A stretch of 64,000 nucleotides of DNA, taken from the NCBI RefSeq assembly GCF_988243305.1, contig NZ_OZ547136.1. One strand, given 5' to 3'. Position numbers and translations under genes: made by a program. Under the pieces are notes generated by a model that ran no database searches, was not told the DNA's origin, and saw only the letters and a program-made list of their open reading frames with translations. Each line of letters starts with the position of its first letter. Within the stretch, counting starts at the first letter, position 1. Positions 6,465-62,079 of this stretch are shown here, piece after piece.

Positions 6465-7640
<1,176 letters not shown>

Positions 7641-7820
7641 TCAGAATTAACTTAACTGTGAATCATGATGTTTTTAGCATCCTGATAAGAGCTAAAAGTT
7701 TTAACGCTACGTTGTTCGATGGTCAACGCAACGAAAAACAATTCAGATTTTCTTTATAAGAATAGCTGATATTTATTAAGTTAATATTAAGCAGTGAAAT
7801 TTAGTCTATAAGATAATTGG

Positions 7821-10819: not shown

Positions 10820-10843
10820 ATAAAAACCTTACCAATAATAAAA

Positions 10844-11602
10844 TTATTTATGCGCAAATAATTGCATTAGTTTTGATATTTTTCTGATAATGATAGCAAT
10901 TTTCCAATTTACATTATGGTTTTTCATAACTTCTACAATTTCCTTTGTACTTGATATCGCGTTATCAATTCTGGTACTTTCCCCACCCAATCTCATCTTT
11001 ACAAATACTTGAGGAACATAAATAACTTTAATATCATCACGTTTCAAAATCCTGACCATCTGATCATAGTCTGCAGCAATCCTATAGGATAAATCAAAAT
11101 ATCCATCGTCTTTATATAATTCCCTCCTCATATAGAAAGATGGATGCGGTGGTGCCCAGCCTAATGATAGCTTAGAACGTTTAAAAGGACCACTACGCCA
11201 GTATCGTTTGATTATATCAATTTGGTTTTTTTCGAAAAAAACCAAATCACCGTATACAACATCCGCTTTTGTCTCATGGAAACGGCTTACAATAGTTTCA
11301 ATAATATCAGGTCTTGCTAAAAGGTCATCAGAATGAACGAATCCAATAATATCTCCCGTAGATAAATTTATACCTTTATTTAAAGCATCATAGATACCGT
11401 TATCGCTTTCTGATAGACATTTGGTTACTCTTGTTGATACTTCGTTAATTAGTTTTAACGTATTATCTGTAGAACCACCATCAATAATTATATACTCTAT
11501 ATCTTTATAGGTTTGCAACTCTATTGACTCTAAAGTATCCCTTAAAGTCTTTTCACTATTATAAGTCACTGTAATAATACTGACTTTCATTTTAACATCC
11601 AA
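10844..11602 (-). CDS. glycosyltransferase, family 2-like
   Basis: 252 aa ORF; N-terminal SIITVTYN...DGGSTD motif typical of GT-A fold; AT-rich; start may be the internal Met at MKVSIIT. Confidence 0.75.
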   Translation of the reverse strand: MDVKMKVSIITVTYNSEKTLRDTLESIELQTYKDIEYIIIDGGSTDNTLKLINEVSTRVTKCLSESDNGIYDALNKGINLSTGDIIGFVHSDDLLARPDIIETIVSRFHETKADVVYGDLVFFEKNQIDIIKRYWRSGPFKRSKLSLGWAPPHPSFYMRRELYKDDGYFDLSYRIAADYDQMVRILKRDDIKVIYVPQVFVKMRLGGESTRIDNAISSTKEIVEVMKNHNVNWKIAIIIRKISKLMQLFAHK

Positions 11603-11673
11603 TAATAATCATAATTAAATAACGTCAGTACCGCATTACGAATAATAATGTTGCATTAGTATCCAGCATCATT

Positions 11674-13074
11674 TTAGATTCTAACAACATCATCTTCATC
11701 CAAGTAAACACCTGAACGTACCTCAATAATCTCCAAAGGGATCTTTCCTGGATTCTCAATAAAATGAGGTACACCTATTGGTATATAAGTTGATTCATTT
11801 TCAGAAACAAGAAATATTTCATCTTCATAATGGACTTTTGCTGTTCCAGAAACAACAATCCAATGCTCAGTACGATGGTAATGAATCTGTTTAGCAGTTT
11901 TATGTCCAGGATGAATAACGACATGTTTAACCTCAAATCGAGATCCTTCCGCTATAGAGTCATGACTGCCCCATGGCCTAAATATTTCACGATGCTGCAG
12001 ATATTCCGTACGGTTATTAACTTTAAGTTTTTCTACAATATTTTTTACCTGTTGAACTTTATCTTTATGCGCAACGAGAATAGCATCTTTAGTTTCAACA
12101 ACTACTAAATCTTTAACTCCTACTACACCAATTAATCTATGTTGTGAGTAAAGATAACTGTCAGAAGAATCATGAATTAATACATCTCCTCTAATTGCAT
12201 TTCCACTTTTATCTTTTCTGCTAATTTCCCATAATGCAGACCAAGAACCAACATCGCTCCAGTGGGCATTTAATGGAACTACCACAGCCTCTGTTGTTTT
12301 CTCCATAACAGCGTAATCAATGGATTCTTCAGGGCAACAACTAAATGAGTCATTATCTATACGGATAAAATCAAGATCTTGTGTAGAGGACTTCAATGCT
12401 TGTTGGCATATTTTTAGTATGTCTGGTCTAAATTTATTCAACTCATCAATAAACACAGAAGCCCTAAACATGAATATTCCACTATTCCAAAGATAATCTC
12501 CATCTTCAAGATATTTTTTGGCCACATCTAGCTCAGGCTTTTCAACAAAAGCAGAAACTTTAAAACCATATTCATTTAAATTTTCTCCGGTTTTTATATA
12601 GCCATATCCAGTTTCGGGTTTGGTTGGCACAATACCAAAAGTTACCAGCTTACCTTCCTCTGCAAATTCTTTTGCAGCCAATATTGACGATATAAAGCGC
12701 TTTTGGTCTTGTATTTCATGATCGGCTGCTAGTACAAGCAGTATTGGATCCTCACCTGATGAAATCGCTTTAAGAGCAGCAAGCGCAACTGCGGGGGCAG
12801 TATTACGACCTACCGGCTCTAGTAAAATGCCACTATTCGCTAAATTTACATTACGCATCTGTTCTGCAACGATAAAACGATGAACTTCATTACAAATAAC
12901 CAGAGCAGGACGATGTTCAACCCCTTCAAGCCTTCTTAAGGTCTCTTGTAGCATAGTCAAACGACTAGTTAACGACAGGAATTGCTTCGGATATAGTGTT
13001 CGAGAAAGTGGCCACAATCTAGTTCCAGAACCACCGGCCATTACAACAGGAAGTAGCATATAAATAACCTTCAC
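11674..13074 (-). CDS. manC: mannose-1-phosphate guanylyltransferase, O-antigen cluster copy
   Basis: 466 aa ORF; [19 protein letters not shown] nucleotidyltransferase motif; paralog of the colanic acid copy but divergent and AT-rich. Confidence 0.88.
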   Translation of the reverse strand: MKVIYMLLPVVMAGGSGTRLWPLSRTLYPKQFLSLTSRLTMLQETLRRLEGVEHRPALVICNEVHRFIVAEQMRNVNLANSGILLEPVGRNTAPAVALAALKAISSGEDPILLVLAADHEIQDQKRFISSILAAKEFAEEGKLVTFGIVPTKPETGYGYIKTGENLNEYGFKVSAFVEKPELDVAKKYLEDGDYLWNSGIFMFRASVFIDELNKFRPDILKICQQALKSSTQDLDFIRIDNDSFSCCPEESIDYAVMEKTTEAVVVPLNAHWSDVGSWSALWEISRKDKSGNAIRGDVLIHDSSDSYLYSQHRLIGVVGVKDLVVVETKDAILVAHKDKVQQVKNIVEKLKVNNRTEYLQHREIFRPWGSHDSIAEGSRFEVKHVVIHPGHKTAKQIHYHRTEHWIVVSGTAKVHYEDEIFLVSENESTYIPIGVPHFIENPGKIPLEIIEVRSGVYLDEDDVVRI

Positions 13075-13526
13075 TTAAAATAATTTTTTGTGTACTGATG
13101 AACTGAGGAATTAGCTAACAATTCGGCTATATCGAACCAATTGTAAGTACTATGTTGTAGTGTTGGATAGTTAATTTGATGTGGCATCAAACTAATCTCA
13201 TATCCGTGTACGACATAATGAGTTGAAAAACAAGTCCCAGAAAAATTGTCGCTGTAGAAATGTTCATAAATCCCAAGAAATTTTGCTTCATTAATGCTAA
13301 TTTGAACACCCAATTCTTCAAAAGTAACTCTTTTGAATGCGTTCTCGAAAGACTCATCTTTAAGAATCCGTCCCCCCGGCACAAACCAATAATTTTGTGC
13401 TGGACGATTAAGGCGCTGACCAAGCAGCGCCTTACCATCTTCGTTTCTTATAATAAGGTCTATCGAGATTAGTGGAGTATGTTCAACTATTGATTTAAAT
13501 AACTCTGTTTCTAATCTCTTGTTCAA
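13071..13526 (-). CDS. gmm: GDP-mannose mannosyl hydrolase (Nudix)
   Basis: 151 aa ORF, Nudix-like, between fcl and manC as in the colanic acid cluster. Confidence 0.8.
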   Translation of the reverse strand: MNKRLETELFKSIVEHTPLISIDLIIRNEDGKALLGQRLNRPAQNYWFVPGGRILKDESFENAFKRVTFEELGVQISINEAKFLGIYEHFYSDNFSGTCFSTHYVVHGYEISLMPHQINYPTLQHSTYNWFDIAELLANSSVHQYTKNYFK

Positions 13527-13528
13527 TA

Positions 13529-14494
13529 TTAACTCCTAAATGAGTCAAGATTATTTATAAACCATTTATATGTTAATTCTAGTCCTTGTTTTAAATTATA
13601 ACGATATTTCCAGCCCAAATTCTCAAGGCGTGTAACATCCATAAGTTTACGAGGCGAACCATCTGGTTTTGTTATATCAAAAACAATTTTTCCATCATAG
13701 CCAACAACTAAAGCCATTGTTTCTGCCATTTCACGTATGGAACAATCAACACCAGTACCTACGTTAATATGAGATAACATTGGTTGAGTATTTTTTTTAT
13801 AAATTTCATCATCAAGCTCCATCACATATACTGATGCAGCTGCCATATCATCAACATATAAAAACTCGCGTTTTGGAGTTCCCGTTCCCCAGACAACCAC
13901 TTCATTTAAACCAAGTTCCTTTGCTTCATGAAAACGCCGCATAAGCGCTGGAATTACATGTGAGTTATTGGGATGAAAATTATCATTCATACCATATAAG
14001 TTAGTAGGCATTACACTGCGATAATCACATCCATATTGGCGATTATAAGATTCACATAGCTTTATACCTGCTATTTTGGAAATAGCATAAGGCTCATTAG
14101 TAGGCTCAAGAGTTCCCGTCAAAAGTGCAGATTCTTTCATTGGCTGTTCTGCAAACTTTGGATAGATACAACTTGACCCTAAGAATAATAGTTTCTTTAT
14201 GCCCGCTTTATAAGATGAGTGAATAATATTGCTTTCAATGAGAAGGTTCTGATAAATAAATTCAGCTGGAAAAGTGTTATTAGCATGAATTCCTCCTACT
14301 TTTGCTGCTGCAAGGTAAACCTGATCTATTCTCTCTTGCTCAAAAAAACATTCAACATCCTTTTGAACTGTCAAATCGAGTTCTTTGTGAGTTTTGACAA
14401 TTAACTCAACATCATTACGTGCTAATAATTGACGACAAATAGCAGAACCAACCATCCCACGATGTCCAGCCACAAAAATTCGCTTCTTGGTCAT
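13529..14494 (-). CDS. fcl: GDP-L-fucose synthase
   Basis: 321 aa ORF; N-terminus [13 protein letters not shown] matches the colanic acid Fcl paralog. Confidence 0.88.
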
Positions 14495-14497
14495 ACT

Positions 14498-15619
14498 TTA
14501 ACGCTCCAAAGAGACTGCCACGTCAAAACCATGGCTTTTAAGAAGTGCATGCTGTTTAGCTTTTTCTAAATCACTAGCCACCATTTCTGCACACATTTCT
14601 TCAACTGTAATCTCTGGCTCCCAACCCAAGACATTTTTTGCTTTTGTTGGATCACCAAGAAGAGTTTCAACTTCTGCTGGTCGAAAATAACGAGGGTCAA
14701 CGCGAACAATAACATCACCAATATTAACACCAACGGCGCAATCTGATGTTTTATTTACAACCATTGCAACCTCATCAACACCAGTACCGGAAAACTCAAG
14801 TTCAAGTCCAACTTCTTTAGCAGACATACGGACAAATTCACGTACAGATATTTGTTTGCCAGTGGCAATAACAAAGTCTTCTGGCTGGTCTTGTTGAAGC
14901 ATCATCCATTGCATACGAACATAATCTTTCGCATGCCCCCAATCACGTAAAGAATCCATGTTGCCAAGATATAAGCATTTTTCTATTCCCTGCGAAATAT
15001 TAGCTATAGCACGTGTGATTTTACGTGTTACAAACGTTTCCCCACGACGTGGGGATTCATGATTGAACAAAATACCGTTGCATGCATACATTCCATAAGA
15101 CTCACGATAGTTTACAGTGATCCAATATGCATACAGTTTAGCTACGGCATAAGGTGAACGAGGATAGAACGGCGTTGCCTCTTTTTGTGGAACTTCCTGA
15201 ACTAATCCATACAATTCAGAGGTTGACGCCTGATAAAATCGGGTTTTTTTTTCTAATCCCAAAAAACGAATAGCTTCCAATAATCGTAAAGTACCTATAG
15301 CATCAACATCAGCTGTATATTCTGGGGATTCGAAGGAAACAGCTACGTGACTCATTGCTCCGAGGTTGTAAACTTCATCAGGTTGAACTTCAGATAATAT
15401 ACGAGTCAAATTAGAAGTATCTGTTAAGTCACCATAATGAAGGTGTAATTTTAAATTAATATTATGGGGATCTTGGTATATATGGTCAATACGTCCAGTA
15501 TTAAAAATAGAAGAACGTCGTTTTATTCCATGAACCTCGTAACCTTTATTTAGTAGAAACTCTGCCAAATATGAACCATCTTGACCAGTAATGCCAGTAA
15601 TTAATGCTTTCTTTGTCAT
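14498..15619 (-). CDS. gmd: GDP-mannose 4,6-dehydratase
   Basis: 373 aa ORF; [20 protein letters not shown]-terminus, highly similar protein to the colanic acid Gmd, but AT-rich DNA. Confidence 0.9.
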
Positions 15620-22116: not shown

Positions 22117-22160
22117 ATAAACCACGCTACCGCCCCTGGCTATACAGCTACCAGAGCACT
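22117..22160 (-). promoter_or_regulatory. JUMPstart element with ops site upstream of the O-antigen operon
   Basis: plus-strand cacgctaccgcc at 22123-22134 is the reverse complement of the ops sequence GGCGGTAGCGTG; same motif context recurs upstream of wza. Confidence 0.8.
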
Positions 22161-28598: not shown

Positions 28599-28639
28599 TT
28601 TTTCCTCATAAATTTGATGCCAGGTGAGGCTGTGTTTGT

Positions 28640-28960
<321 letters not shown>

Positions 28961-28970
28961 AAACAGCAAC

Positions 28971-31899: not shown

Positions 31900-33270
31900 T
31901 TACTCATTCAGCAACGTCAGCAGAGTTCGCGTTCGCGCTTCCATCAGCGGCACATCACCGCGCGATTCCACATTCAACCGCACCACCGGTTCGGTGTTGG
32001 AGGAGCGCAGGTTAAAGCGCCAGTCGGCAAAGGTCATGCTGATGCCATCGGTGCGATCCACCGCCAGCGCCTCGCGGCTAAAATGCTGTTCGACGCGGTT
32101 AATCGCCTCAACGGGTTGTGACAGTTTGCTGTTGATCTCACCGCTTGCCGGGAATGCCGCCATCCGGTCGCGCACCAGTTCGCCCAGCGTTTTTCCTTTC
32201 AGGCACACCAGTTCGGCGACCAGCAGCCACGGGATCATGCCGCTGTCGCAGTAAGCGAAATCACGGAAGTAATGGTGGGCGCTCATTTCGCCACCGTAGA
32301 TGGCGTCTTCCTTGCGCATACGTTCTTTAATAAAGGCGTGTCCGTTTTTCGACATCACCGGCGTGCCGCCAGCGGCAGTCACCACATCAACGGTATTCCA
32401 GGAGAGACGTGGATCGTGGATGATCTTCGCGCCGGGATTTTTTTCGAGGAACGCTTCTGCCAGCAGGCCGACAATGTAGTAGCCTTCGATAAACTGCCCT
32501 TTTTCGTTAAACAGGAAGCAGCGGTCAAAATCGCCATCAAAGGCAATGCCCATATCCGCGCCGTGTTTGATGACCGCATTGCGGGTGTCGTCGCGGCATT
32601 CAGGCAGCAGCGGGTTAGGAATACCGTTGGGGAAATTGCCGTCCGGTGTGTTGTGTACTTTGATTAATTCCACCGGCGCGCCGAGGGCTTTAAAGCGGGC
32701 TTCGATGGCGTCAACTACCGGACCCGCTGCGCCGTTCCCGGAGTTGATCACCAGCTTGAGCGGCGTGAGATTTTTGACATTGATATAACCGAACAGGTGA
32801 TCAACGTAAGCGTCACGCAGGTTGATTTGCTGATAGCGACCGCGTTTGGTTTCATCGACGAGAGGAAAGTTGTTGGCTTCAGCCAGACGCTGGATGTCGC
32901 GCAGTCCGGTATCACCGCTGATCGGGCGAGCCCCTTCGCGCACCAGCTTCATGCCGTTGTAATCCATCGGGTTATGGCTGGCGGTAACTTCAATGCCGCC
33001 ATCCACACCGAGATGGAACGTGGCGAAATAAATCTCTTCGGTGCCGGACATGCCAATATCCAGCACGTCGACGCCCGCATCCTGTAAACCTTTCGCCAGC
33101 GCCAGTTTTAAGGTTTCGCTGGTGAGGCGGACATCACCGCCTAACACAATGGTTTTCGGTTTGAGAAATTCGCCATAAGCGCGACCAATGCGCCAGGCAA
33201 TATCTTCATTCAGTTCTTCGCCTAATTTTCCACGAATATCATAGGCTTTAAAGCAGGTTAATTTTTTCAT
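31900..33270 (-). CDS. manB: phosphomannomutase, colanic acid cluster copy
   Basis: ORF 31900-33318; start set at [10 protein letters not shown] (cat at 33268-33270), giving 456 aa. Confidence 0.92.
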
Positions 33271-33339
33271 GTCGTTACCCTTTTTCAGGCAATAGTTGGC
33301 CCTGACCGAAGCGGCCAATTTTGTTTTTGTCGTTATTTA

Positions 33340-33550
<211 letters not shown>

Positions 33551-34996
33551 TTACACCCGTCCGTAGCGATCCGCGAAGCGCACCACATCATCCTCTTCGA
33601 GATAAGAGCCGGAGCGCACTTCAATTAAATCGAGCGGAATTTTCCCCGGGTTTTCCAGGCAATGCGTCGCCCCCAGCGGAATATAAATGGACTCGTTTTC
33701 ACCAAGCAGTTTGATATCACCGTCGATAGTGACTTTTGCCGTTCCCGCGACCACCACCCAGTGTTCCGCGCGGTGATGGTGCATCTGTACCGACAAGCCC
33801 TCGCCCGGTTTCACGGTGATGCGTTTCACCTGGTAGCGGTCGCCCGCGTCGATAGAGTCATATTTGCCCCACGGACGATACACTTCGCGATGCACCCGAT
33901 GCTCATGGCGACCATCGGCTTTGATCTGCTCGACCACTTTTTTCACATCCTGCACCGCGTTACGGTCGGCAATCAGCACCGCATCTTTGGTCTGCACCAC
34001 TACCAGATCTTTCACCCCGACGGTGGTGACCAGGCCAGATTCGGCGTACACATAGCTGTTTTCAGTTTTGTGATTAATCACATCACCGTGGCAAACGTTG
34101 CCCTCGGCGGTGTGGGCGCTGATCTCCCATAATGAAGACCAGGAACCGACATCGCTCCAGCCCGCATCCATCGGCACCACAACGGCATCTGCCGTACGTT
34201 CCATGACCGCGTAATCCACCGACTCTTCCGGGCAGGCCAGAAACGCTTCTTCATCCACGCGAATAAAATCGAGATCCGGATCGACGGCGCTCATCGCTTG
34301 TTCACAGGCGTCGAGAATATCCGGGCGATATTTTTTCAGTTCTTCGAGATAGCGTCCGGCGCGGAACAGGAACATGCCGCTGTTCCAGTAATATTCGCCG
34401 CTTGCCACATAGGCCTGGGCGGTTTCCAGATTCGGTTTTTCGACAAACTGCGCCACTTCAAAGGCCACCGTATCCTGCTCACCCGCAGATACTTCACCGC
34501 GACGAATATAGCCATATCCGGTTTCAGGTAGATCCGGCACAATGCCGAAGGTCACCAGCTTGCCCGCTTCGGCATATGGCATGGCATTACGCACGGCGGT
34601 GCGAAAAGCGTCTTCATCGGCAATCACATGATCCGCCGCCAGCACCAGCATTAACGGGTCGCTCTCCGGGCTATGACGTTTTGCCGCCAGCGCCGCCAGC
34701 GCCGCCAGCGCAATGGCAGGTGCAGTGTTACGCCCTGCCGGTTCGAGAATAATGTTCTCGGTGAGTTTGTTCAGTTGGCGCAGCTGTTCCGCGACAATAA
34801 AGCGGTGCTGCTCATTGCAAATCACCACCGGGCTTTCGCACTCTACGCCTTTCAGGCGGCAGATGGTGGTTTGCAGCATGGTGAGATCGCCTTTCAGGCA
34901 TAAAAACTGCTTGGGGTAAAGTACGCGGGAAAGCGGCCATAAGCGGCTACCGGAGCCACCTGCCATCACAACTGGATAGAGTTTCGACTGCGCCAT
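33551..34996 (-). CDS. manC: mannose-1-phosphate guanylyltransferase, colanic acid cluster copy
   Basis: 481 aa ORF; [18 protein letters not shown] motif. Confidence 0.92.
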
Positions 34997-34998
34997 AA

Positions 34999-36222
34999 TT
35001 ATCCCCGAATATCATTTATAAATTGACGTAACACGTTCTCTTTATCGAGCGTGCGTTCGGCATATTCACGTGCCACCGTGTTGTGTTTGGGCAGCAGAAG
35101 CGCCTGACGGATCCCCGCCACCAGCGCCTCGACCGATTCCGGTTCTACGCAAACCGCAATTCCCGGAAAGGTTTCGCAAAGCTGCCCCAGTTCTGTGTGG
35201 GCTTCCGCGGTAATCACCGCGTTACCGCCTACCGCCAGAATATTGGTCAGTTTCGACGGCAATACGGCATCTGCCGCGCCGCGTTTTTGCACCACCAGAT
35301 GGCAATCGCCCATCTTCAGCAGTGCGGGTAAAGCGTCATACGATTGCAGCGGGAAAAATTGCATGTTGCGCAGTCCACGCTGCTGCGCCATTTTTTCCAG
35401 CCGCGCTTTGCCGCCGCCCTGCCCGACAATGGCAAAAATCAGCGGTTCATCGCGCAGGAGATCGGCAGCTTCAATAACGTTTTCCAGCCCCTGCTTTTCA
35501 CCAATATTGCCGGAGTAAAGAATGATTTTTTTGTTATCCGGCAGGCCAAGCTGGTTACGAAGAGCGTCAACATCGGCATCTGCAACATGCTGAAAACGGG
35601 CAATTTCCGACCAGTTGGGGAAGAAGATGACGTTTTCCGCCGCCACGCCTTTTTCGATGGCTTTATTCATCATCGAACGCGAAATCGTGGAGACGTTATC
35701 GACGTTATGCAGTCCGCTACGTTCGAACGCCGTTGCCAGCTGTGCCACTTTGCCGCCTTTGCCTTTTCCGGCAAGGCCCAGCCCCAGCATGGCGTCCACT
35801 TCGTAATCCTGAATATGCAGCACGGTACGCGCACCAGAGAGTTTCGCCAGCAGGCGCATTCCCGGCGTGCAAAACAGCGTTGGCACCACGCCAATAATGC
35901 GATCCGGCTTCCAGCGACGTTGCGCCATCAACGGGAAAAAACTGCTGACGGCAAAACTGCCGAGATGTAACAGGCGTTTCAGGGTGCTCGGCTGTTTTGG
36001 CACGTACAGCGGGCAGCGCCACACCGTAGCGGCCCCCTCTTCTCGTTTGTATCGCCAGGCGGAATAGTTCTCGCCCACCTGCCACTGCGGGTAGTAAGGT
36101 GGTGCGGTAATGACCCGCACCTCATGACCTTGTGCCGCCAGCCATTCCACCATCTCGCCGGTGTATTTGCCGATGCCGGTTAACTCCGGCGAGTAGTTAA
36201 TGCCGTAGACCAGTATTTTCAT
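34999..36222 (-). CDS. wcaI: colanic acid glycosyltransferase
   Basis: 407 aa GT-B fold ORF, cluster position. Confidence 0.88.
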
Positions 36223-36701
36223 AATCCGGGTACTCCGGCACGCTTCTCAGCGAGAAAATAGGCGCGGCTGTTAGCGTGAACATCGTTACTGGCGAGCAGC
36301 GCGTCCGGCGTCAGCCAGCGGTAATCGTCATGCTGCTCATCCGGCAGTATCAGATCTTCTTCAGCGACTCTGAAGCGAAAACCGAGCACCACATAGTGAG
36401 TGGTGAAATCCGTGCCGGAGAAGTTATCGTCATAAAAGTGCTGCCAGACACCGTAAAACTGGCCTGCTGTTATCGGCAGACGCAGCCCCAGTTCCGCCAT
36501 CGTCAGCCGCTCGAATGCGGCTTCCAGCGTTTCGTCTTTCTGCACGCGCCCTCCCGGCACAAACCAGTAACCCTGCGCCGGGCGGTTGGTTCTTTTGCCA
36601 AGCAGAAACTCGCCGCGACTGTTCTCGACAATAAAGTCGAGAGAGACAAGCGGGGTGGAGCGCACTACCGTGGCAAAGTCTTCCTGACGTAAAAACATCA
36701 T
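36219..36701 (-). CDS. gmm: GDP-mannose mannosyl hydrolase (Nudix)
   Basis: 160 aa ORF, Nudix-like, cluster position. Confidence 0.88.
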
Positions 36702-37666
36702 TACCCCCGAAAGCGGTCTTGATTCTCAAGGAACCACTGGTAAGTGCTGGCAAGCCCCGCTTCCAGTGAGATTTCGTGATACCAGCCAAGCTGATGCAGG
36801 CGCGTCACATCCAGCAGTTTGCGCGGCGTGCCATCCGGTTTGCTGGCATCAAAAACCACCCGGCCTTTGTAACCCACCACTTTGGCGATGGTTTGCGCCA
36901 GCTCGCGGATAGTGCAGTCAACGCCCGTGCCGACGTTAATGTGCGACAACATCGGCTGGGTGTTCTCCAGCCAGACTTCATGCGCCAGCTCCATGACATG
37001 AATGCTCGCCGCCGCCATATCATCGACGTGCAGAAATTCGCGCATCGGTGTACCGCTGCCCCATACCACCACGTCCGGCGCATTCTGTGCCGTCGCCTCG
37101 TGGAAGCGACGCAGCAATGCTGGGATCACATGCGAATTACTCGGGTGGAAGTTGTCGTGTGGCCCGTACAGGTTGGTCGGCATGACTGAGCGGTAATCGC
37201 GTCCGTACTGGCGGTTGTATGATTCGCACAGTTTGATCCCGGCGATTTTGGCAATAGCATAAGGCTCGTTAGTCGGCTCCAGCGTGCCCTGCAACAACTC
37301 GCTTTCTGCCATCGGCTGTTTTGCCAGTTTCGGGTAGATGCAGGACGATCCGAGAAACAGCAGTTTGTTCACGTCGTTCTGATGCGCGGCGTGAATGATG
37401 TTGCTCTCAATCATCATGTTCTGGTAGATGAAATCCGCCGGATAGGTGTTGTTGGCAACAATGCCGCCCACTTTCGCCGCCGCCAGATAGACCTGGTCAA
37501 TACGTTCGCTGGCAAAGAAATCATGCACGGCGCGGCTGTCCAGCAGGTTCAGCTCGTCGCGGGTGCGTAATACCAGTTCCACATCACCGCGCTGTTCGAG
37601 CTGCCGCCTGATGGCAGAACCGACCATCCCGCGATGGCCAGCGATAAAAATGCGTTGTTTACTCAT
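36701..37666 (-). CDS. fcl: GDP-L-fucose synthase
   Basis: 321 aa ORF, cluster position. Confidence 0.92.
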
Positions 37667-37668
37667 GC

Positions 37669-38790
37669 TTATGACTCCAGCGCGATCGCCACGTCGTAGC
37701 CGTGAGATTTCAGCAGAGAGTGTTTTTTCGCCGCTTCGAGGTCATTAGCCACCATTTCAGACACCATCTCTCTGAGGGTGATTTCCGGTTTCCAGCCCAG
37801 TTTTTCGTGCGCTTTGGTCGGGTCGCCGAGCAGCGTTTCAACTTCTGCCGGACGGAAGTAACGCGGGTCAACGGCGATAATCACATCACCCGGTTTAACG
37901 CCCGGCGCGTCATGCCCGGTGACGGAAACCACAATGCCCTTCTCTTCAACACCCGTGCCTTCAAAGCGCAGTTTGATGCCCAGCTGTGCTGCCGCCATTT
38001 CCACGAACTGACGTACGGAGTACTGAACGCCGGTAGCGATAACAAAATCTTCCGGCTGTTCCTGTTGCAGCATCATCCACTGCATTTTTACGTAGTCTTT
38101 GGCATGGCCCCAGTCACGCAGGGAATCCATATTGCCGAGGTACAGACACGACTCCAGCCCCTGGGCGATGTTGGCGATTGCGCGGGTGATTTTGCGGGTA
38201 ACGAAGGTTTCACCGCGGCGCGGGGATTCATGGTTGAAGAGAATACCGTTACAGGCGTACATGCCGTAGGATTCGCGGTAGTTAACGGTGATCCAGTAGG
38301 CGTACAGTTTGGCGACCGCATACGGAGATCGCGGGTAGAACGGCGTGGTCTCTTTCTGCGGAATTTCCTGCACCAGACCATACAGTTCAGAGGTGGAAGC
38401 CTGATAGAAACGAGTTTTCTTTTCCAGACCGAGGAAGCGGATCGCCTCCAGCAGGCGCAGCGTACCCATCGCGTCGACGTCAGCGGTATATTCTGGTGAC
38501 TCAAAAGAGACCGCAACGTGGCTCATTGCGCCCAGGTTGTACACTTCATCCGGCTGTACTTCACGCAAAATGCGCGTCAGGTTAGAGGTATCACTCAGGT
38601 CGCCATAATGCAGATGGAATTTCGGGTTGCAGGTGTGCGGATCCTGATAAATGTGATCCACGCGCTCGGTGTTGAATGACGATGCGCGACGCTTAATACC
38701 ATGCACCTCGTAACCTTTTTCCAGCAGAAACTCTGCCAGGTAAGAACCGTCTTGTCCGGTTACACCGGTGATGAGAGCGACTTTTGACAT
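37669..38790 (-). CDS. gmd: GDP-mannose 4,6-dehydratase
   Basis: 373 aa ORF, cluster position. Confidence 0.92.
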
Positions 38791-43033: not shown

Positions 43034-43873
43034 TTAGCGCCCCCGAATACCATCAGCCAGACGTTTGCCGTTACGCACCGACAGCAGCGTCAGCAAAGTG
43101 CGCCAGGTCATGCGTTTATTGCGGATCTGGTAGAGGGTAAACAGCTGATATTTTTTGCTGGCACGGTCGAATTTGTCTTTGTGCTTGCGGTAAAAGTGGA
43201 AGTACCCGGAGAATTTTTTCGGTGACGAGGTGATCTGCATTTCACCGTGATTGATATGCAGGATCTGCGTCGCCTCTTCCACTTTCCACGGTTCGCCATA
43301 CTCCACCACCATCCGCAGGAAGATGTCGTAATCCTGTGCCGCTTTCAGTTCGGTATCAAACAAACACTCTTTGAAACGCCATGCCCAGGTAAAGACCTGA
43401 TTGCCAATGATATTGCGTTTGTAGAACAGGCGGCGTGAATACGGCGATTTGGGATACAGCGGTAAGCTTGCCGGTTGGGAATAGACTTCGCCCTGGCAAA
43501 CGTAATCGTTAGCGTACAAAAAGGCGTGAGTGACCAGTTGCTGTTTATGGGCGAGGAAGACGCTCAGACGGTTGGGGGTCCATTCATCATCATCATCGAT
43601 CCCGGTGATGTATTCCCCTTGCGCCAGCATAATAGCCTGGTTACGTACCGCGCACGCCCCGCTGTTAATGTCGTTGTGAATGTAGGTAATACGCGGATCG
43701 TTGAGGGCGGTGACGTACTGTTGCAGTTGTTCCCAGGAGGTGGAGCAATCATCCACGACGATCATCTCCCAGTTGTTGTAGTCCTGGCGCAGGACCGATT
43801 TTATCGCCCGAATCGCCAGTTGTTGGCGGTTCCAGGTCGGCATATAGATTGAGATCAGCGGATTGTCTTTCAT
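43034..43873 (-). CDS. wcaA: colanic acid glycosyltransferase, family 2
   Basis: 279 aa ORF; ISIYMPTWNRQ...DDCST motif. Confidence 0.88.
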   Translation of the reverse strand: MKDNPLISIYMPTWNRQQLAIRAIKSVLRQDYNNWEMIVVDDCSTSWEQLQQYVTALNDPRITYIHNDINSGACAVRNQAIMLAQGEYITGIDDDDEWTPNRLSVFLAHKQQLVTHAFLYANDYVCQGEVYSQPASLPLYPKSPYSRRLFYKRNIIGNQVFTWAWRFKECLFDTELKAAQDYDIFLRMVVEYGEPWKVEEATQILHINHGEMQITSSPKKFSGYFHFYRKHKDKFDRASKKYQLFTLYQIRNKRMTWRTLLTLLSVRNGKRLADGIRGR

Positions 43874-43889
43874 AGGTTGTTCTCCCGGC

Positions 43890-43965
43890 TTATGAGCTGG
43901 TTTGCTTGCCGGATGCGGCGTGAGCGCCTTATCCGGCCTACGGGGCGGTGCGAATGCAGGCGTCG
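43890..43965. repeat. REP element between wzc and wcaA
   Basis: palindromic gccggatgcggcgtgagcgccttatccggcctac unit. Confidence 0.8.
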
Positions 43966-46128
43966 TTATTTCGCATCCGACTTATATTCGTATTCGTAAT
44001 AGCCATAATCCTGATACGCGCTGGCGCGACGGAAGATGGAGTTCAGAATCACCCCTTTCACCGGAATACCGTTTTGCTCAAAGCGGCTCAGACTGGTTTC
44101 CACTTCTTTCAATGTGTTGACCGCATAACGCGCCACCATTAACGTGGTTCCGACATGACGACCAACAATTGCCGCATCGGTCACTGCCAGAATCGGCGGC
44201 GTATCAATCAACACCAGGTCATAGTTTTTACTCGCCCAGTTCACCAGTTCGGCAAAGCGTTCGCTCATCAACAGTTCAGAAGGATTTGGCGGTACCTGAC
44301 CGCGCGGGATCAGGTCAAATTTGGCAATAGAGGTCGGTTTAGCAGCGGTAGTAATATCGCCCTGACCAATCAAAATTTCCGACAGGCCATTGACGTTATT
44401 GGTGCCCAACAGCTCGTGGGTGTAGCCTTTGCGCATATCGCAGTCGATCAACAACACCCGTTTATTGGTCTGACTGATCACCGCCGCCAGGTTAGCGCAG
44501 ACAAAGGTTTTACCGATTGACGGGCTAACCCCGGTCATCATCAACACATTGTTCTGCGCCTGCATCATCGCGAAGTGCAGACTGGTACGCAGACTGCGGA
44601 TGGCTTCAATCGCCAGATCGGTTGGATTCCCCACCGCCAGTAGCTGGCTCTGTTTATAGCGTTTAACCCCTTTGATGGTTTTGACGCTATCGCGCGCTTT
44701 CTGCCATTCCGACAGCGGGATGCTGGCATAGACGCTAATACCGTGTTCTTCCAGCACCTGTGGGCTTTCGATGCCGCGATTGAACAACGAGCGCAGCAGC
44801 ACACCCACGATAGAGAGCATCAGGCCGAGGATAATCGCGCCGAGGATAATCAGCCCTTTCTTCGGTTTTAGCACGCCAGGCTGGGTGATTGCCGGGTCAA
44901 CAATGCGCACATCGCCGACGGTGCTGGCCTCGGTGATTTTCAGCTCCTGCTCTTTATTCAGCAGTTGCATATAGACCTGTTGACCAGACTCGACATCGCG
45001 GGTCAGACGGACAATTTCCTGCTGGGTTTTCGGCATCGCCGTTACGCGACCGTTAAGTTTGGCTTTTTCGTCTTCCAGCGCCTGCCGTTTCTCCAGCAGC
45101 GTGCGGTACGCCGGGTGAACTTTGGTGTACAGCTTGGAGATTTCCGCTTCTTTAAAGGTCAGTTCGTTCAACTGCGCGTCGATGTTCACCATCGAATCGA
45201 GCACCGCTTTCGCTTCCAGCGGCAGATCAACAGAATCTTTATCCTGACGGAAGGCATTCAGTTTGTTTTCGGCAACATCGAGGCGGCTACGTACTTCCGG
45301 TAACTGTTGCGCGAGGAAAGCGAGGCTTTTCGACGCTTCCGCCGATTTGCGCTCAATATTTTGTTCCTGATAGTTACGGGCGATGCTGTTAAGAATGTCG
45401 CGGATCTGTTCGCGATCTTCACCGGTATAAGTCAGGCTCAAAACGCCAGCATCTTTGCCGTTCTCCGTTACCGTCAGGCTGTTTTGCAGTTGGTTGATCA
45501 TCCCCAGCGTGGAGTATTTGGTGACGGTAAACTCACTGCCCGGGCTGGCGTGAATGGCTTCAACCATCAGCGTGACGCCTTCTTTTTTCAGCATCTGGCC
45601 CGCTTGCCCACGGGCGCTAAAGCCGCCATCACTGCTCAGGGTGTAGTTTTTGTCATCAAGCACATTAAGCGTAAACACCTGATCCGCCATCTCTTTCGGG
45701 CGGTTAAAGGTGGTCACTTTCACCGTCTCGTTCTGACGTCCCATCAGGCGATCCCAGCCCGCACCGAAAATCGGGAACGTGTTTTTGCTCACCGCAATAT
45801 CGAGGTCGAGATCGTCCACCGTTTTACCAAGCACCAGACGCGAACGAATCAACTGGATCTCGGCGTCCGATGCTGGCGGTTTGTTGGCTAATGCCGAACC
45901 AATGTCCTGCACTAACGAATTGCCGCTGTTTTGCTCGATTTGTACCAGTGCGTCGGCACTATAAATCGGCGTGGCGAAGAAGGTGTAAACCACGGCACAG
46001 AGGGCGAATACGGCAGTGATGCCAATTACCCACCAGCGCGCCTCAATGACGGTGCCAACCAGGCGACCAATATCGATTTCATCACTGCCCGTTACCGGAG
46101 CGGCATGTTGTTTTACTTTTTCTGTCAT
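43966..46128 (-). CDS. wzc: tyrosine autokinase / polysaccharide co-polymerase
   Basis: ORF 43966-46164 trimmed to start at MTEKVKQH (720 aa); Walker A GVSPSIGKT; C-terminal Tyr-rich tail YQDYGYYEYEY. Confidence 0.92.
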   Translation of the reverse strand: MTEKVKQHAAPVTGSDEIDIGRLVGTVIEARWWVIGITAVFALCAVVYTFFATPIYSADALVQIEQNSGNSLVQDIGSALANKPPASDAEIQLIRSRLVLGKTVDDLDLDIAVSKNTFPIFGAGWDRLMGRQNETVKVTTFNRPKEMADQVFTLNVLDDKNYTLSSDGGFSARGQAGQMLKKEGVTLMVEAIHASPGSEFTVTKYSTLGMINQLQNSLTVTENGKDAGVLSLTYTGEDREQIRDILNSIARNYQEQNIERKSAEASKSLAFLAQQLPEVRSRLDVAENKLNAFRQDKDSVDLPLEAKAVLDSMVNIDAQLNELTFKEAEISKLYTKVHPAYRTLLEKRQALEDEKAKLNGRVTAMPKTQQEIVRLTRDVESGQQVYMQLLNKEQELKITEASTVGDVRIVDPAITQPGVLKPKKGLIILGAIILGLMLSIVGVLLRSLFNRGIESPQVLEEHGISVYASIPLSEWQKARDSVKTIKGVKRYKQSQLLAVGNPTDLAIEAIRSLRTSLHFAMMQAQNNVLMMTGVSPSIGKTFVCANLAAVISQTNKRVLLIDCDMRKGYTHELLGTNNVNGLSEILIGQGDITTAAKPTSIAKFDLIPRGQVPPNPSELLMSERFAELVNWASKNYDLVLIDTPPILAVTDAAIVGRHVGTTLMVARYAVNTLKEVETSLSRFEQNGIPVKGVILNSIFRRASAYQDYGYYEYEYKSDAK

Positions 46129-46130
46129 TC

Positions 46131-46574
46131 TTATACCTGCTCTGCGTTCAATGCCTGCGCCCACTGGCGGGCAGACCGTTCAAGTAATGTGTACACCGCT
46201 GCAAACGTTTCCCGGCTTTTGCGATACGGATCGGGGATTTCACATTCGTTATCCCAGTGACCAAACAGCATCACTTTGCCGCGCATCTCAGGTGCCATCT
46301 CGCATAAGCGTTCGATATGGCGCTTTTCCATGGTCAAAATCAGGTCGTAGTTGCGACACAGGCGACGGCTGATTTGCCGTGCACAGTGACCTTCCAGAGA
46401 CAGTTGATGTTCTGCGGCGACGCTGATAGCAGTAGGGTCAGCGCCCTTACCGACCAGCGCGCCGAGTCCAGCGGACTCCACTTTCAGCTCCGGGTGATAA
46501 CGTTGCAGTAAGCGTTCCGCCGTCGGGGAACGGCAAATATTGCCGACACAGACAACTAAGATGTTGTTAAACAT
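46131..46574 (-). CDS. wzb: low-molecular-weight protein-tyrosine phosphatase
   Basis: 147 aa ORF with CVGNICRSP P-loop signature. Confidence 0.92.
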   Translation of the reverse strand: MFNNILVVCVGNICRSPTAERLLQRYHPELKVESAGLGALVGKGADPTAISVAAEHQLSLEGHCARQISRRLCRNYDLILTMEKRHIERLCEMAPEMRGKVMLFGHWDNECEIPDPYRKSRETFAAVYTLLERSARQWAQALNAEQV

Positions 46575-46579
46575 GACGA

Positions 46580-47719
46580 TTACCAGTTATGAATGTCGCT
46601 GGCTGTATCCGTCATGTAACGGACACCGCTAATAGTTGGCAGCAACTGATTGATCAGACGGTTCCAGCGGGAAACCGGGGCGGTGGTGACATACACCACG
46701 TCATAAGGTTGCAGGCGGAATTCTGTCGCCATCACCAGCGACGTGGCATCGGACATATCCAGCTGGTAGATATTGGCAATCTTGCCGTTACGCCCACCCT
46801 CGCCTTTCAGCGGACGAATGACAAAGATGCCGCTGGCGTTGGAGGTGGTCATGTCGATGCCTTCAGCATTGCCCAGGGCTTCAGTCAGGGTCATGCCGCT
46901 AAAGTCCATTTTCAGGGTGCTCTGTTTTTTAACTTCACCCATCACAAATACTTTCAGATCATCATTACGCGGCACGTAGAGAATATCGCCGGGGTAAAGC
47001 AGTCGGTTCTGATTGAGGTCGCCGTTTTGCATCAGCGCCTGCAAAGAAATGCGTTCTTCACGACCATTGTGTGTTAGCACCACGTTGCGCCAGTCAGCGG
47101 TGTCGGTCAGACCACCTGCGGCGTTGATGGCATCGAGAATGGTCAGTGGTACGTTGGTGATGGCCTGTTGACCGGATTTATTCACCTGACCTGAGATATA
47201 CGCTTTTTGCGAGCGGAAGGCGGCGATATTAACGTCCACCTGCGGGTCAGCGATGTACGTCGCTAAGCGCCCGGTAATATCACTGCGGATTTCAGCGAGC
47301 GTTTTCCCCACCACGTGAACTTTGCCGATATACGGGTAGAACATGGTGCCGTCAGGCTGTACCCAGTTGCCGGTGTCGCTGGAGCTGCGGTACTGACCGG
47401 CTGGCGTGGTAAGTTCCGGGTGATCCCAGACGGTGACATTAAGAACGTCCCCCGGCCCGACGCGATACTGGTAATTCGCGATCTCGCTTTCCAGCGTCAT
47501 ATTGGGGCGCGCTACGTTGGGTCGTGGGCGTAATTGATCAATCAGGCGCGGGGTCAACGGATAAACATTCACCATTTTGTCGAGATCGAAATCAGCGTCC
47601 TGCTGTTTGATGACGTCTTTGCCCATCGTCGACATATTGCTGCCCGGAAGTACTGTGCAACCGCTTATCAAGGTTACTGACACCAATAATGGCATCAATT
47701 TCATTTTGGATTTCATCAT
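46580..47719 (-). CDS. wza: outer membrane polysaccharide export lipoprotein
   Basis: 379 aa ORF with lipoprotein signal (LISGC); first gene of colanic acid operon. Confidence 0.92.
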
Positions 47720-47892
47720 TGTTTATTTATCACTTTGGCAGAGTAATTATCCTGTGCACTATTAATAGCAATGTCGCCATGCACATTTACCTTGCAGTTA
47801 ATTGAATAAAAATTTAACTGGCATCAGTCCTAAAAAAATTGATTTCATCCGCAGGCTATTGACAGAATAATTCAGACTGGTCTTTCAGGCAT

Positions 47893-47935
47893 CCAGACAC
47901 GCTACCGCCCCTGGCTTTTTAGCTACCAATACACT
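47893..47935 (-). promoter_or_regulatory. JUMPstart element with ops site in the leader of the colanic acid operon
   Basis: plus-strand cacgctaccgcc at 47898-47909, reverse complement of GGCGGTAGCGTG, about 180 nt upstream of the wza start. Confidence 0.8.
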
Positions 47936-48377
47936 GATTTAGCTTAATTTTTAAAACCCTCTCAACATACAGTCGTTGATGAGAAAGGGTTATTGCGGAA
48001 ATTAACTTCCGAATATAAGGTGACATTATGGTAATTGAATATTGGCTCTCCAATAATGCAGGAGGAAGTGTTACAGCTAACGGAATAGCAGGCAAGGTAA
48101 CAATTCGGCAATTGGCTATTTTTAAGAATTATATTAAGTGTCATTCAACATGGTTTTTAGGAGTTTCTTTAGGTTGACAATATTTAATATAGTGTCTCCA
48201 CATGCGATATTTCTTAAATAATGTTTTATTATTACCACTTTTAATTCAGGGATAATGTGAGGTTATAAACCTCAAATAATATGAGATAAATAGTGCTGCA
48301 ACATTGCATTTTTGCCCCGATTTATCCATGATCGAATTGTGACATTTGTCATACAACGAATAGGTTTTGTACTTACT

Positions 48378-49961
48378 ATGGAATGGATTGCCGATCCGTC
48401 TATCTGGGCCGGGTTAATCACGCTGATTGTGATCGAACTGGTCCTCGGCATTGATAACCTGGTCTTTATTGCCATCCTCGCCGAAAAACTACCGCCGAAG
48501 CAGCGCGACCGCGCACGGGTTACCGGGCTGCTGCTGGCGATGTTAATGCGCCTGTTACTGCTGGCGTCAATCTCCTGGCTGGTCACCCTGACACAACCGC
48601 TATTCAGCTTTCGCTCGTTTACCTTTAGCGCCCGCGACTTAATCATGCTGTTTGGTGGTTTCTTCCTGCTGTTCAAAGCCACGATGGAGCTGAACGAACG
48701 GCTGGAAGGGAAAGACAGCAATAACCCCACGCAACGCAAAGGTGCGAAGTTCTGGGGGGTGGTGACACAAATTGTGGTACTGGACGCCATCTTCTCACTC
48801 GACTCGGTGATTACCGCCGTCGGGATGGTCGACCATTTACTGGTCATGATGGCCGCCGTCGTTATCGCTATTAGCCTGATGTTGATGGCCAGCAAGCCGT
48901 TAACGCAATTTGTTAACAGTCACCCGACGATCGTTATTCTCTGCTTAAGCTTCCTGTTGATGATTGGCTTTAGCCTGGTGGCAGAAGGTTTCGGCTTCGT
49001 CATTCCGAAAGGCTACCTGTACGCTGCTATTGGTTTCTCGGTGATGATCGAGGCGCTCAATCAGTTGGCTATCTTTAACCGGCGACGTTTTCTTTCCGCT
49101 AACCAGACACTGCGCCAGCGGACTACCGAAGCGGTAATGCGCCTGCTTAGCGGGCAAAAAGAAGATGCGGAACTGGACGCCGAAACCGCGTCCATGCTGG
49201 TGGATCATGGTAACCAGCAGATCTTTAATCCGCAGGAACGGCGGATGATTGAGCGGGTACTTAATCTTAACCAGCGTACTGTCAGCAGCATTATGACGTC
49301 GCGCCACGATATTGAGCATATCGATCTCAACGCGCCGGAAGAAGAAATCCGCCAGTTGCTGGAGCGAAATCAGCATACGCGGTTGGTGGTTACCGACGGT
49401 GATGACGCAGAAGATTTGCTCGGTGTTGTTCACGTTATCGACCTGCTACAACAGTCACTGCGCGGCGAACCGCTCAACCTGCGGGTGTTGATTCGCCAGC
49501 CGCTGGTGTTCCCGGAAACCTTGCCGTTGTTACCTGCTTTGGAGCAGTTCCGTAATGCCCGCACACACTTTGCTTTTGTGGTGGATGAGTTTGGCTCGGT
49601 GGAAGGGATTGTGACATTAAGTGACGTCACGGAAACTATTGCCGGTAACTTGCCGAACGAAGTGGAAGAGATCGACGCCCGCCATGATATTCAGAAAAAC
49701 GCCGACGGTTCCTGGACGGCGAATGGTCATATGCCACTGGAAGATCTGGTGCAATATGTGCCGCTACCGCTGGATGAGAAACGCGAATATCACACCATTG
49801 CCGGGCTGCTGATGGAATATTTGCAGCGTATTCCAAAACCTGGCGAAGAAGTTCAGGTGGGGGATTATTTGCTTAAAACGTTGCAGGTGGAAAGCCATCG
49901 CGTGCAGAAGGTGCAGATTATACCGCTGCGTAAGGATGGCGAGATGGAGTACGAGGTGTGA
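48378..49961 (+). CDS. yegH: inner membrane protein with TerC-family membrane domain and CBS / CorC-HlyC C-terminal domains
   Basis: ORF 48312-49961; start set at [10 protein letters not shown] (ATG at 48378) to give 527 aa; domain call from recollection and hydrophobic N-terminal half. Confidence 0.8.
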
Positions 49962-61617: not shown

Positions 61618-62079
61618 ATGAAAAAGATATTACTTATGTTGAGTCTGCTATTTTTTACTACCGCGGGCTTTAGTGAAGTTTCGGATACGTTAGTGACGGG
61701 AGGTTATGATAAACAAGCGATGTCTGACGCCATTCAACATGCGCGGAAAGAAACCGATCAATTCATCGAAATTATGAATAAAAAAGATGCCGATACTTTC
61801 GCGGTCAAAGCCCCGATAACCGATCACGGAAGAACAGAGCATTTCTGGCTTACGGATGTCACTTATTCTAACGGCATGTTTATTGGCGTAATAAGCAATG
61901 ACCCTGGTATTGTTACAAACGTAGAATATGGTCAGGAGTGGAAAATCAAGAAAGAAGATATTTCAGACTGGATGTATACGCGCGGGGATAAAATTTACGG
62001 CGGTTATACCATTGATCCTTTATTAGTCACCTATCCAAAAGAAGAAGCCGACGAGCTAAGAGCAAAATTAGTTCGCTAA
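61618..62079 (+). CDS. yegJ: secreted protein of unknown function
   Basis: 153 aa ORF with N-terminal signal peptide (MKKILLMLSLLFFTTAGFS); AT-rich. Confidence 0.8.
   Translation: MKKILLMLSLLFFTTAGFSEVSDTLVTGGYDKQAMSDAIQHARKETDQFIEIMNKKDADTFAVKAPITDHGRTEHFWLTDVTYSNGMFIGVISNDPGIVTNVEYGQEWKIKKEDISDWMYTRGDKIYGGYTIDPLLVTYPKEEADELRAKLVR

Follow-up and report, generated by a model that had tools for sequence, protein, structure and literature searches.

The closest described system to the locus reported here is the Wza-Wzb-Wzc module of Escherichia coli K-12 (b2062-b2060), for which there are structures of the Wza-Wzc complex (PDB 9r60-9r69 and 9xgv), of Wzb (2fek) and of the Wzc kinase domain (3la6); a cryo-EM structure of the K-12 complex was published in 2026. 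The K30 group 1 capsule system matches it in having a three-gene module, octameric Wza and Wzc, and the same phosphorylation cycle; K30 secretion can be functionally complemented by the colanic-acid system (PMC12881504). K30 loci, however, carry a wzi gene upstream and export an anchored capsule. The group 4 capsule proteins GfcE, Etp and Etk (PDB 3cio for Etk) are paralogous OPX, LMW-PTP and BY-kinase proteins, which exhibit the same motifs and are encoded at another chromosomal locus, together with the ymc/gfc genes. Finally, WzzB, the PCP-1 chain-length regulator of the O-antigen, has the Wzz periplasmic motif and the two-TM topology in common with the N-terminal region of Wzc, and both proteins have been proposed to regulate a Wzy polymerase as octamers (PMC8285477). 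Unlike Wzc, WzzB has no kinase domain, tyrosine tail, outer-membrane partner or phosphatase.

We analyzed a 64,000-nt stretch of DNA (contig NZ_OZ547136.1), referred to below as the window, which contains a wza-wzb-wzc block with the gene order, protein lengths, intergenic spacers, JUMPstart leader and flanking genes of K-12. This block is almost certainly the intact beginning of the colanic-acid (wca/cps) operon of E. coli, as indicated by its intact open reading frames, curated models, domains, identity to K-12, motifs, selection, synteny and JUMPstart element; no sequence evidence against this assignment was found. As a discovery, this carries little weight, as the system is among the best-characterised for polysaccharide export. 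The finding is correct but ordinary and the system already known, in line with the original prediction, which had labelled it well-described biology: the module is in the literature, and public databases already list exactly these protein sequences under the names Wza, Wzb, and Wzc. Its value lies in annotation: the colanic-acid pathway of this strain is complete and maintained by selection, which bears on stress tolerance, on biofilm formation, and on mucoidy when Rcs is induced.

Coding sequences and encoded proteins

The three genes are co-oriented on the minus strand, and each runs from ATG to TAA with no internal stop codon in the ORF reading of the window. The wza gene (46580-47719) encodes an outer-membrane lipoprotein translocon of the OPX family (379 aa), wzb (46131-46574) a low-molecular-weight phosphotyrosine phosphatase (147 aa), and wzc (43966-46128) a PCP-2a co-polymerase with a BY-type tyrosine autokinase (720 aa). 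By direct reading of the sequence, the wza-wzb junction is TAA-tcgtc-ATG (5 nt) and the wzb-wzc junction TAA-ga-ATG; with gaps this short, the three products may be translationally coupled. The original prediction had claimed that all three genes are intact and that wzb and wzc are separated by only 2 nt. Both points held, and a frameshift or premature stop, looked for in each of the three genes, was found in none. In the mechanical ORF list, wzc began further upstream, with a GTG at 46164; the start was set to the ATG at 46128 because the NCBIfam model is then matched at positions 1-720 of 720 and the protein follows K-12 Wzc position by position. Across wzc, wzb, and wza, five long antisense ORFs of the plus strand were rejected as genes, with a Pfam match in none.

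Judged from their sequences, the three genes correspond to the colanic-acid Wza translocon, the Wzb low-molecular-weight phosphotyrosine phosphatase and the Wzc BY-kinase/co-polymerase, since equivalog models, Pfam architecture and an identity of 99.6-100% with the K-12 proteins of solved structure agree. Matches to the curated models were all above the curated cut-offs and far beyond chance, with E-values of 0 (Wzc), 3.7e-99 (Wzb), and 7.5e-220 (Wza). The Walker A motif and tyrosine cluster of the Wzc autokinase, the phosphatase motif of Wzb and the lipoprotein nature of Wza, all read in the original prediction, were recovered as follows.

Wzc scored 1517.6 bits against the NCBIfam equivalog NF008568 (cut-off 1068), and its autokinase domain 161.8 bits against TIGR01007 (cut-off 108). 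Pfam domains were Wzz (PF02706, residues 16-107), WZC_N (111-204), GNVR (367-447), and AAA_31. Hydrophobic segments were observed at about 32-52 and 425-445, with hydropathy peaks beginning at 32-35 and 425-427, and hydropathy and Pfam together place two TM segments on either side of a periplasmic Wzz/GNVR co-polymerase domain. The kinase motifs comprised Walker A (GVSPSIGKT, residues 533-541 with the catalytic K540, encoded at 44506-44532), Walker A' (LLIDCDMR, 559-566), Walker B (VLIDTPP, 639-645), and EAIRSLR (508-514). The tyrosine tail YQDYGYYEYEY was located at residues 705-715 (encoded at 43984-44016), with Y705, Y708, Y710, Y711, Y713, and Y715 all present, as was the internal Y569; in K-12 Wzc, the tail tyrosines and Y569 are reported to be phosphorylated (PMC12881504). 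The Walker A motif has a Val where the strict pattern [AG]x4GK[ST] wants Ala or Gly, and the functional K-12 Wzc is identical at this position. Overall, 717 of the 720 residues were identical to K-12 Wzc, and the three substitutions were all conservative: T39A in TM1, I488V just before the kinase domain, and N159D in what we take to be the periplasmic jellyroll region. None of them touches the motifs checked, and the exact Wzc sequence of the window was found on 151 public contigs. From its 99.6% identity to K-12 Wzc and the published mechanism, Wzc is predicted to have autokinase activity and to cycle between octamer and monomer depending on phosphorylation.

Wzb was 100% identical to K-12 Wzb (PDB 2fek). 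Its phosphate-binding loop CX5R(S/T) corresponded to C9-VGNIC-R15-S16, within the P-loop CVGNICRSP at residues 9-17 (encoded at 46524-46550), and the DP loop was present as D115-P116-Y117, D115 being the general-acid aspartate. The protein scored 160 bits against the Pfam family LMWPc (PF01451) and 329 bits against the NCBIfam equivalog NF007520 (cut-off 243).

The signal peptide of Wza carries the lipobox ISGC (codons 47657-47668), with Cys21 followed by Thr at +2; a lipobox cysteine with a residue other than Asp at +2 corresponds to a lipoprotein sorted to the outer membrane. Wza matched NCBIfam PRK15078 over its full length (1-379 of 380 model positions; 729 bits, cut-off 333), and Pfam matches to Poly_export (PF02563, 96 bits), SLBB_2 (PF22461, 173 bits over two stretches), and Wza_C (PF18412, 59.6 bits), the latter covering the C-terminal amphipathic helix, were all above gathering scores. 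Identity to K-12 Wza was 100% over 379 aa (PDB 9xgv_C, 9r60), and given this identity to chains of the solved K-12 octamer (9xgv_C, 9r60_A), Wza would form an octameric alpha-helical barrel translocon.

Conservation and alternative assignments

Of the 5426 complete E. coli genomes, 4821 had an alignment to the block that covered 80% or more of its length, annotated as wza/wzb/wzc, and each of the full-length matches listed consisted of one ungapped 3754-nt alignment. Sixty-nine E. coli genomes matched at only 80-90% identity, and these could belong to the group 1 capsule class. Nucleotide identity to K-12 was 97.4-98.4% per gene, with almost all differences synonymous. When compared with K-12, ST2747, and AH25, the three genes exhibited a dN/dS of 0-0.06 (0.01-0.03 for wzc), and Wza differed from the three strains by 8-30 synonymous and no non-synonymous changes. 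The genes are under strong purifying selection, as shown by this low dN/dS and by the lack of any amino-acid change in Wza despite a nucleotide divergence of 2-3%.

An intact module may still be phenotypically silent, either because it is H-NS-silenced and never induced, or because of a defect outside the window (e.g., in rcsA, rcsB, or rfaH). H-NS binds the wza-wcaM locus of CFT073, where RNAP gives no signal in rich medium (PMC9765446), and production of colanic acid is normally confined to low temperature or Rcs activation (PMC9143390). Such conditional silence, however, is the normal state of the operon and not a loss of function; moreover, the dN/dS values indicate that selection maintains the genes, and every other wca gene of the window has its full length. 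We therefore consider a silent module improbable.

A group 1 (K30-like) capsule locus, which would export a serotype-specific capsule anchored by Wzi, shows the same gene order and architecture, and its proteins are clear homologues (810 bits for Wzc 7nhr, 556 for Wza 2j58, and 164 for Wzb 2wja). The K-12 colanic-acid proteins nevertheless scored far higher (1567, 851, and 330 bits for Wzc, Wza, and Wzb, respectively). In addition, neither wzi nor any Pfam-recognisable ORF was found between yegH and wza, and the genes downstream are wcaA to wcaM, including colanic-acid-specific equivalogs such as WcaD (TIGR04010). Synteny and identity thus rule out a group 1 capsule locus, to which we attach only a minimal probability; as wzi is absent here, the product would therefore be a released slime. 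Equally negligible are the group 4 paralogues GfcE-Etp-Etk, ruled out by model scores and synteny: despite strong matches, including 312 bits to PDB 3cio, the Etk model PRK09841 (898 bits, cut-off 1248) and the Etp model NF008486 (PRK11391; 189.5 bits, cut-off 247) remained below their cut-offs, whereas the Wzc and Wzb equivalogs exceeded theirs, and the locus adjoins yegH/asmA and the wca genes, with no gfc/ymc flanking genes. The block is the colanic-acid copy specifically, and neither the group 1 capsule copy nor the group 4 paralogues, which refines the original prediction.

Operon context and wza leader

The gene order in the window (yegH, JUMPstart/ops leader, wza-wzb-wzc, REP hairpin, wcaA to wcaM, galF) is that of the canonical colanic-acid operon, with synteny common to K-12, ST2747, and AH25. 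All of the downstream wca genes in the window were present at full or expected length, and WcaD, WzxC, and WcaJ were confirmed by equivalog models. The gap between yegH and wza measured 592 bp and contained no recognisable ORF; within the wza leader, a 49-aa ORF, which is a PGAP-annotated CDS in related strains, and a 60-aa ORF both lacked a Pfam match and were rejected as genes.

On the sense (non-template) strand of this leader, a JUMPstart element was identified at 47898-47936 (minus strand; Rfam RF01707, 57.3 bits, gathering score 35, E = 1.4e-11), containing the ops sequence GGCGGTAGCGTG at 47898-47909. The ops pattern occurred twice in the window versus 0.13 occurrences expected by chance, and JUMPstart and ops were invariant across the window, K-12, and ST2747. 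The ops sequence within JUMPstart is the loading site of RfaH. An RfaH ChIP signal has been reported at the wza ops site of CFT073 (PMC9765446), and both Rcs and RfaH are described as regulators of the colanic-acid operon (PMC9976346, PMC9765446, PMC9143390).

A candidate RcsAB box, TAAGAAATATCGCA, was located about 300 nt upstream of ops (48203-48216, minus strand). It was invariant in three strains and shared 9 of 14 positions with TAAGATTATTCTCA, which PMC3438125 gives as the RcsAB box of K. pneumoniae. The degenerate RcsAB core pattern matched at the expected place, but was unenriched, with 22 matches in the window versus 23.6 expected. For TAAGAATATTCCTA, which we take to be the RcsAB consensus, seven matches with at most three mismatches were found in the window versus 4.8 expected, and the region upstream of wza contained none. 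We thus retain 48203-48216 as a candidate box only. A sigma-70 promoter and terminator scan of 43800-48400 returned nothing above chance, with one weak sigma-70 candidate, fewer than in shuffled sequence; Stout reportedly mapped the wza promoter in 1996. The regulator genes rcsA, rcsB, rcsC, rcsD, rcsF, lon, rfaH, and hns all lie outside the window.

Proposed mechanism, wzc-wcaA spacer and neighbouring loci

An Rcs-dependent promoter preceding wza would initiate transcription, and RfaH, loaded at JUMPstart/ops in the leader, would carry transcription through the operon of about 24 kb. The steps that follow are well established, through structures and experiments, for proteins 99.6-100% identical to those of the window (PMC12881504, PMC8285477). 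Wzc would act as an inner-membrane co-polymerase, octameric when its C-terminal tail (Y705-Y715) is unphosphorylated, with the periplasmic helical arms of the octamer docking onto the octameric outer-membrane lipoprotein Wza, such that both would form one continuous channel. The growing colanic-acid chain, whose units would be flipped by WzxC and polymerised by WcaD (Wzy), would leave the cell through this Wza-Wzc channel. Phosphorylation of a neighbouring subunit's tail by the Walker-type kinase domain of Wzc would then break up the octamer and stop synthesis, and removal of the phosphates by Wzb would allow the machine to reassemble.

The 92-nt spacer between wzc and wcaA (43874-43965), which was 99% conserved in four strains, contained a REP-type hairpin (43908-43937, minus strand) with a fold of 7 + 4 bp. 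The folding energy of a 97-nt stretch including this hairpin was -30.5 kcal/mol (z = -1.9), and its match to the REP-derived Rfam family naRNA4 was sub-threshold (37 bits, threshold 59.5). The hairpin is possibly a partial attenuator or an mRNA-stabilising (3'-end) element. A joint reading, in which such an attenuator or stabiliser is combined with a recombinant hybrid operon, seems to us tentative and rather doubtful. With regard to the hairpin, the level of the export and regulation module wza-wzb-wzc may be held above that of the glycosyltransferase genes downstream, and RfaH loaded at ops may modulate read-through past it. As to the hybrid, wcaM to cpsG may have been co-inherited with the O125 O-antigen locus, and cpsB to wza may come from a different lineage.

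The O-antigen cluster has its own wzx and wzy genes and is of the O125 family. The original prediction had contrasted the export module with this Wzz-using locus, and we indeed found a full-length WzzB at 5342-6319 (minus strand), adjoining ugd/gnd; it scored well above the WzzB cut-off (NF012015, 609 bits, cut-off 267), whereas Wzc matched Wzz-type models weakly. A putative IS200-like insertion between yegI and pphC, a sequence absent from ST2747, was rejected and corresponds to a DUF2314 protein, presumably yegJ of K-12. With the module as an anchor, the window can be placed firmly on an O125-type E. coli chromosome, in its his-wzzB-ugd-gnd-O-antigen-galF-wca-yegH region.

Identity and integrity of the wza-wzb-wzc module

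The wza (46580-47719; 379 aa), wzb (46131-46574; 147 aa) and wzc (43966-46128; 720 aa) genes were found consecutively on the minus strand, over the interval in which the original prediction had placed an intact export and tyrosine-phosphorylation module. All three, seen both as listed ORFs and in the sequence itself, had an ATG start and a TAA stop, and none contained an internal stop, which agrees with that claim. For wzc, the mechanical ORF starts at a GTG (46164) and would overlap wzb. The product of the ATG at 46128 aligned end to end with K-12 Wzc and spanned the NCBIfam Wzc model in full (positions 1-720 of 720). With this start, the wzb-wzc junction reads TAA-ga-ATG, so that the predicted 2-nt gap was right; the wza-wzb junction (TAA-tcgtc-ATG) has 5 nt. 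Spacers of 5 and 2 nt suggest that the three genes may be translationally coupled. On the opposite strand of wza, wzb and wzc, long ORFs were also present; none matched a Pfam family, and they were attributed to chance.

The Pfam architectures predicted from the sequence were the textbook ones: Poly_export, two SLBB stretches and Wza_C for Wza; LMWPc for Wzb; and Wzz, WZC_N, GNVR and a P-loop ATPase domain for Wzc. Wzc and Wzb exceeded the cut-offs of their NCBIfam equivalogs (1517.6 versus 1068 bits and 329 versus 243 bits, respectively), as did Wza that of the subfamily model PRK15078 (729 versus 333 bits). In the PDB, Wza was matched at 100% identity by the K-12 Wza chains in Wza-Wzc cryo-EM entries, and Wzb by 2fek; Wzc differed from wild-type K-12 Wzc by three residues (T39A, N159D and I488V). 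These matches bear out the predicted identities of lipoprotein, LMW phosphatase and autokinase.

Among the motifs of Wzc, we found Walker A (GVSPSIGK540T, read in alignments to homologues including K-12 Wzc), Walker A' (LLIDCDMR), Walker B (VLIDTPP), EAIRSLR (508-514), Y569 and the C-terminal cluster YQDYGYYEYEY (tyrosines 705, 708, 710, 711, 713 and 715), together with the two expected membrane segments in the hydropathy profile (around residues 32-52 and 425-445). Wzb carried the phosphate loop C9-X5-R15-S, matching the predicted CVGNICRSP, plus D115-P, and Wza a lipobox, ISG-C21, followed by Thr. Walker A and the tyrosine cluster had likewise been predicted.

The module is a member of the colanic-acid Wza-Wzb-Wzc system in E. 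coli: the sequence-testable defining features were found, the RcsAB-dependent promoter being represented by a candidate box. A group 1 (K30) capsule system was rejected: K30 homologues in the PDB matched the proteins much less well than the K-12 ones, and wzi was absent from the 592-bp yegH-wza gap. The group 4 paralogues were also rejected, the Etk model on Wzc (898 bits) and the Etp model on Wzb (189.5 bits) falling under their cut-offs (1248 and 247, respectively). In the system described, a rigid Wza octamer is engaged by the periplasmic helical arms of Wzc, forming a continuous trans-envelope channel, and the role proposed for the Wzc jellyroll domain is to capture repeat units and steer these to Wzy, which lies within the membrane cavity of Wzc; the Wzc octamer comes apart as autophosphorylation progresses and can reassemble once Wzb has removed the phosphates, neither the kinase nor the phosphatase activity being dispensable (PMC12881504; PMC8285477).

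The exact Wzc sequence was already public, on 151 contigs, as were those of Wzb and Wza, each on no fewer than 1000; all carried the corresponding names. Since nothing new was found, the module is an already known system, as the original prediction had judged.

The wza upstream region

The yegH-wza gap was near-invariant between the window, K-12 and ST2747. It contained a JUMPstart element (47898-47936, minus strand; Rfam RF01707, 57.3 bits versus 35) that includes ops, the RfaH loading site (GGCGGTAGCGTG), and a candidate RcsAB box at 48203-48216 (minus strand). RcsA/RcsB act as activators of colanic-acid operon transcription and H-NS as its silencer, and RfaH is required at ops (PMC9976346, PMC9765446, PMC9143390). 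The small ORFs of the gap had no Pfam family match. At 48028-48177 (plus strand), on the antistrand of the wza promoter/leader, RefSeq annotates a 49-aa hypothetical protein in related strains (WP_162829205.1); this ORF, which did not match any Pfam family, was probably over-called.

The ops/JUMPstart core GGCGGTAGCGTG recurred exactly at 22123-22134 (minus strand), in the interval from galF to the O125 wzx, with which the O-antigen genes begin; this gives two RfaH loading sites in the window versus 0.13 expected by chance. Within the ugd coding sequence (7235-7248, minus strand), TAAGAAATATCGTA agreed with the candidate RcsAB box of the wza upstream region at 13 of 14 positions, and another box-like sequence, TAAGTTAATTCTGA, lay 10 nt before the ugd start (7641-7654, minus strand). 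Both may be due to chance, since the degenerate RcsAB-type pattern showed no overall enrichment in the window.

Conservation and a recombination junction in cpsG

Compared with K-12, ST2747 and the O125 strain AH25, the three genes differed by 0.7-2.7% of nucleotides, nearly all synonymous: Wza had 0 non-synonymous versus 8-30 synonymous differences, and dN/dS was 0.01-0.03 for Wzc and 0-0.06 for Wzb. At least 80% of the 3754-nt wza-wzc block was aligned in 4821 of the 5426 complete E. coli genomes, and each of the full-length matches listed was a single ungapped 3754-nt piece annotated wza/wzb/wzc. With the wza-wzc segment (43880-48320), the top nucleotide identity in this collection was ~98.9% (ST2747); 69 genomes matched at 80-90% only, and megablast gave no match in ~600 (594-601). 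The DNA allele is uncommon among these genomes, though the encoded proteins are common.

From 8400 to ~32640, the window was near-identical to AH25, the 24 kb ending at 32400 containing 15 mismatches; from 32647 the two diverged by ~2%, and this continued to at least 49197. This jump places a recombination junction inside the colanic-acid gene cpsG, with the breakpoint (~32640) within the operon. Recent ancestry with AH25 is therefore shared by the O125 O-antigen locus, by the epimerase gene and by the wca genes from wcaM to wcaJ, but not by cpsB to wza. Recombinational mosaicism around the O-antigen locus is known, and the junction is consistent with it; the integrity of the wza-wzb-wzc module is unaffected.

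Genomic surroundings

The window comprised, in order, his genes, wzzB (5342-6319), ugd and gnd, and a low-G+C O125-family O-antigen cluster; galF, a GlcNAc-PP-undecaprenol 4-epimerase gene and wcaM to wcaA; then wzc-wzb-wza, yegH, asmA, dcd and udk. The presence of wzzB, and of wzx and wzy within the O-antigen cluster itself, upholds the predicted contrast between the export module and an O-antigen locus using Wzz. All wca genes were present with the expected lengths, and WcaD (polymerase), WzxC (flippase) and WcaJ (initiating transferase) passed their equivalog cut-offs. The 92-nt wzc-wcaA spacer contained a conserved REP hairpin, which may act as an attenuator or stabiliser.

Two other spacers of the operon were enlarged by REP/BIME-type repeats: cpsG-cpsB (33360-33545), with a tandem 88-nt unit in one copy more than AH25, and wcaK-wzxC (28599-28970), of 372 bp versus 70 bp in ST2747, which matched a repeat whose median number of sites per genome was 34. 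Two separate GDP-mannose/GDP-fucose gene sets (manB, manC, gmm, fcl and gmd) were also observed, one in the O125 O-antigen cluster (9449-15619; low G+C) and one in the colanic-acid cluster (31900-38790; 53-57% G+C), with ~96% identity between the two manB copies across 1.3 kb. Finally, a ~790-bp low-G+C stretch between yegI and pphC, genes which overlap in ST2747, contained a 153-aa ORF (61618-62079, plus strand) missing from that strain; a small insertion sequence was rejected here, as the ORF encodes a DUF2314 protein, which we take to be K-12's yegJ.
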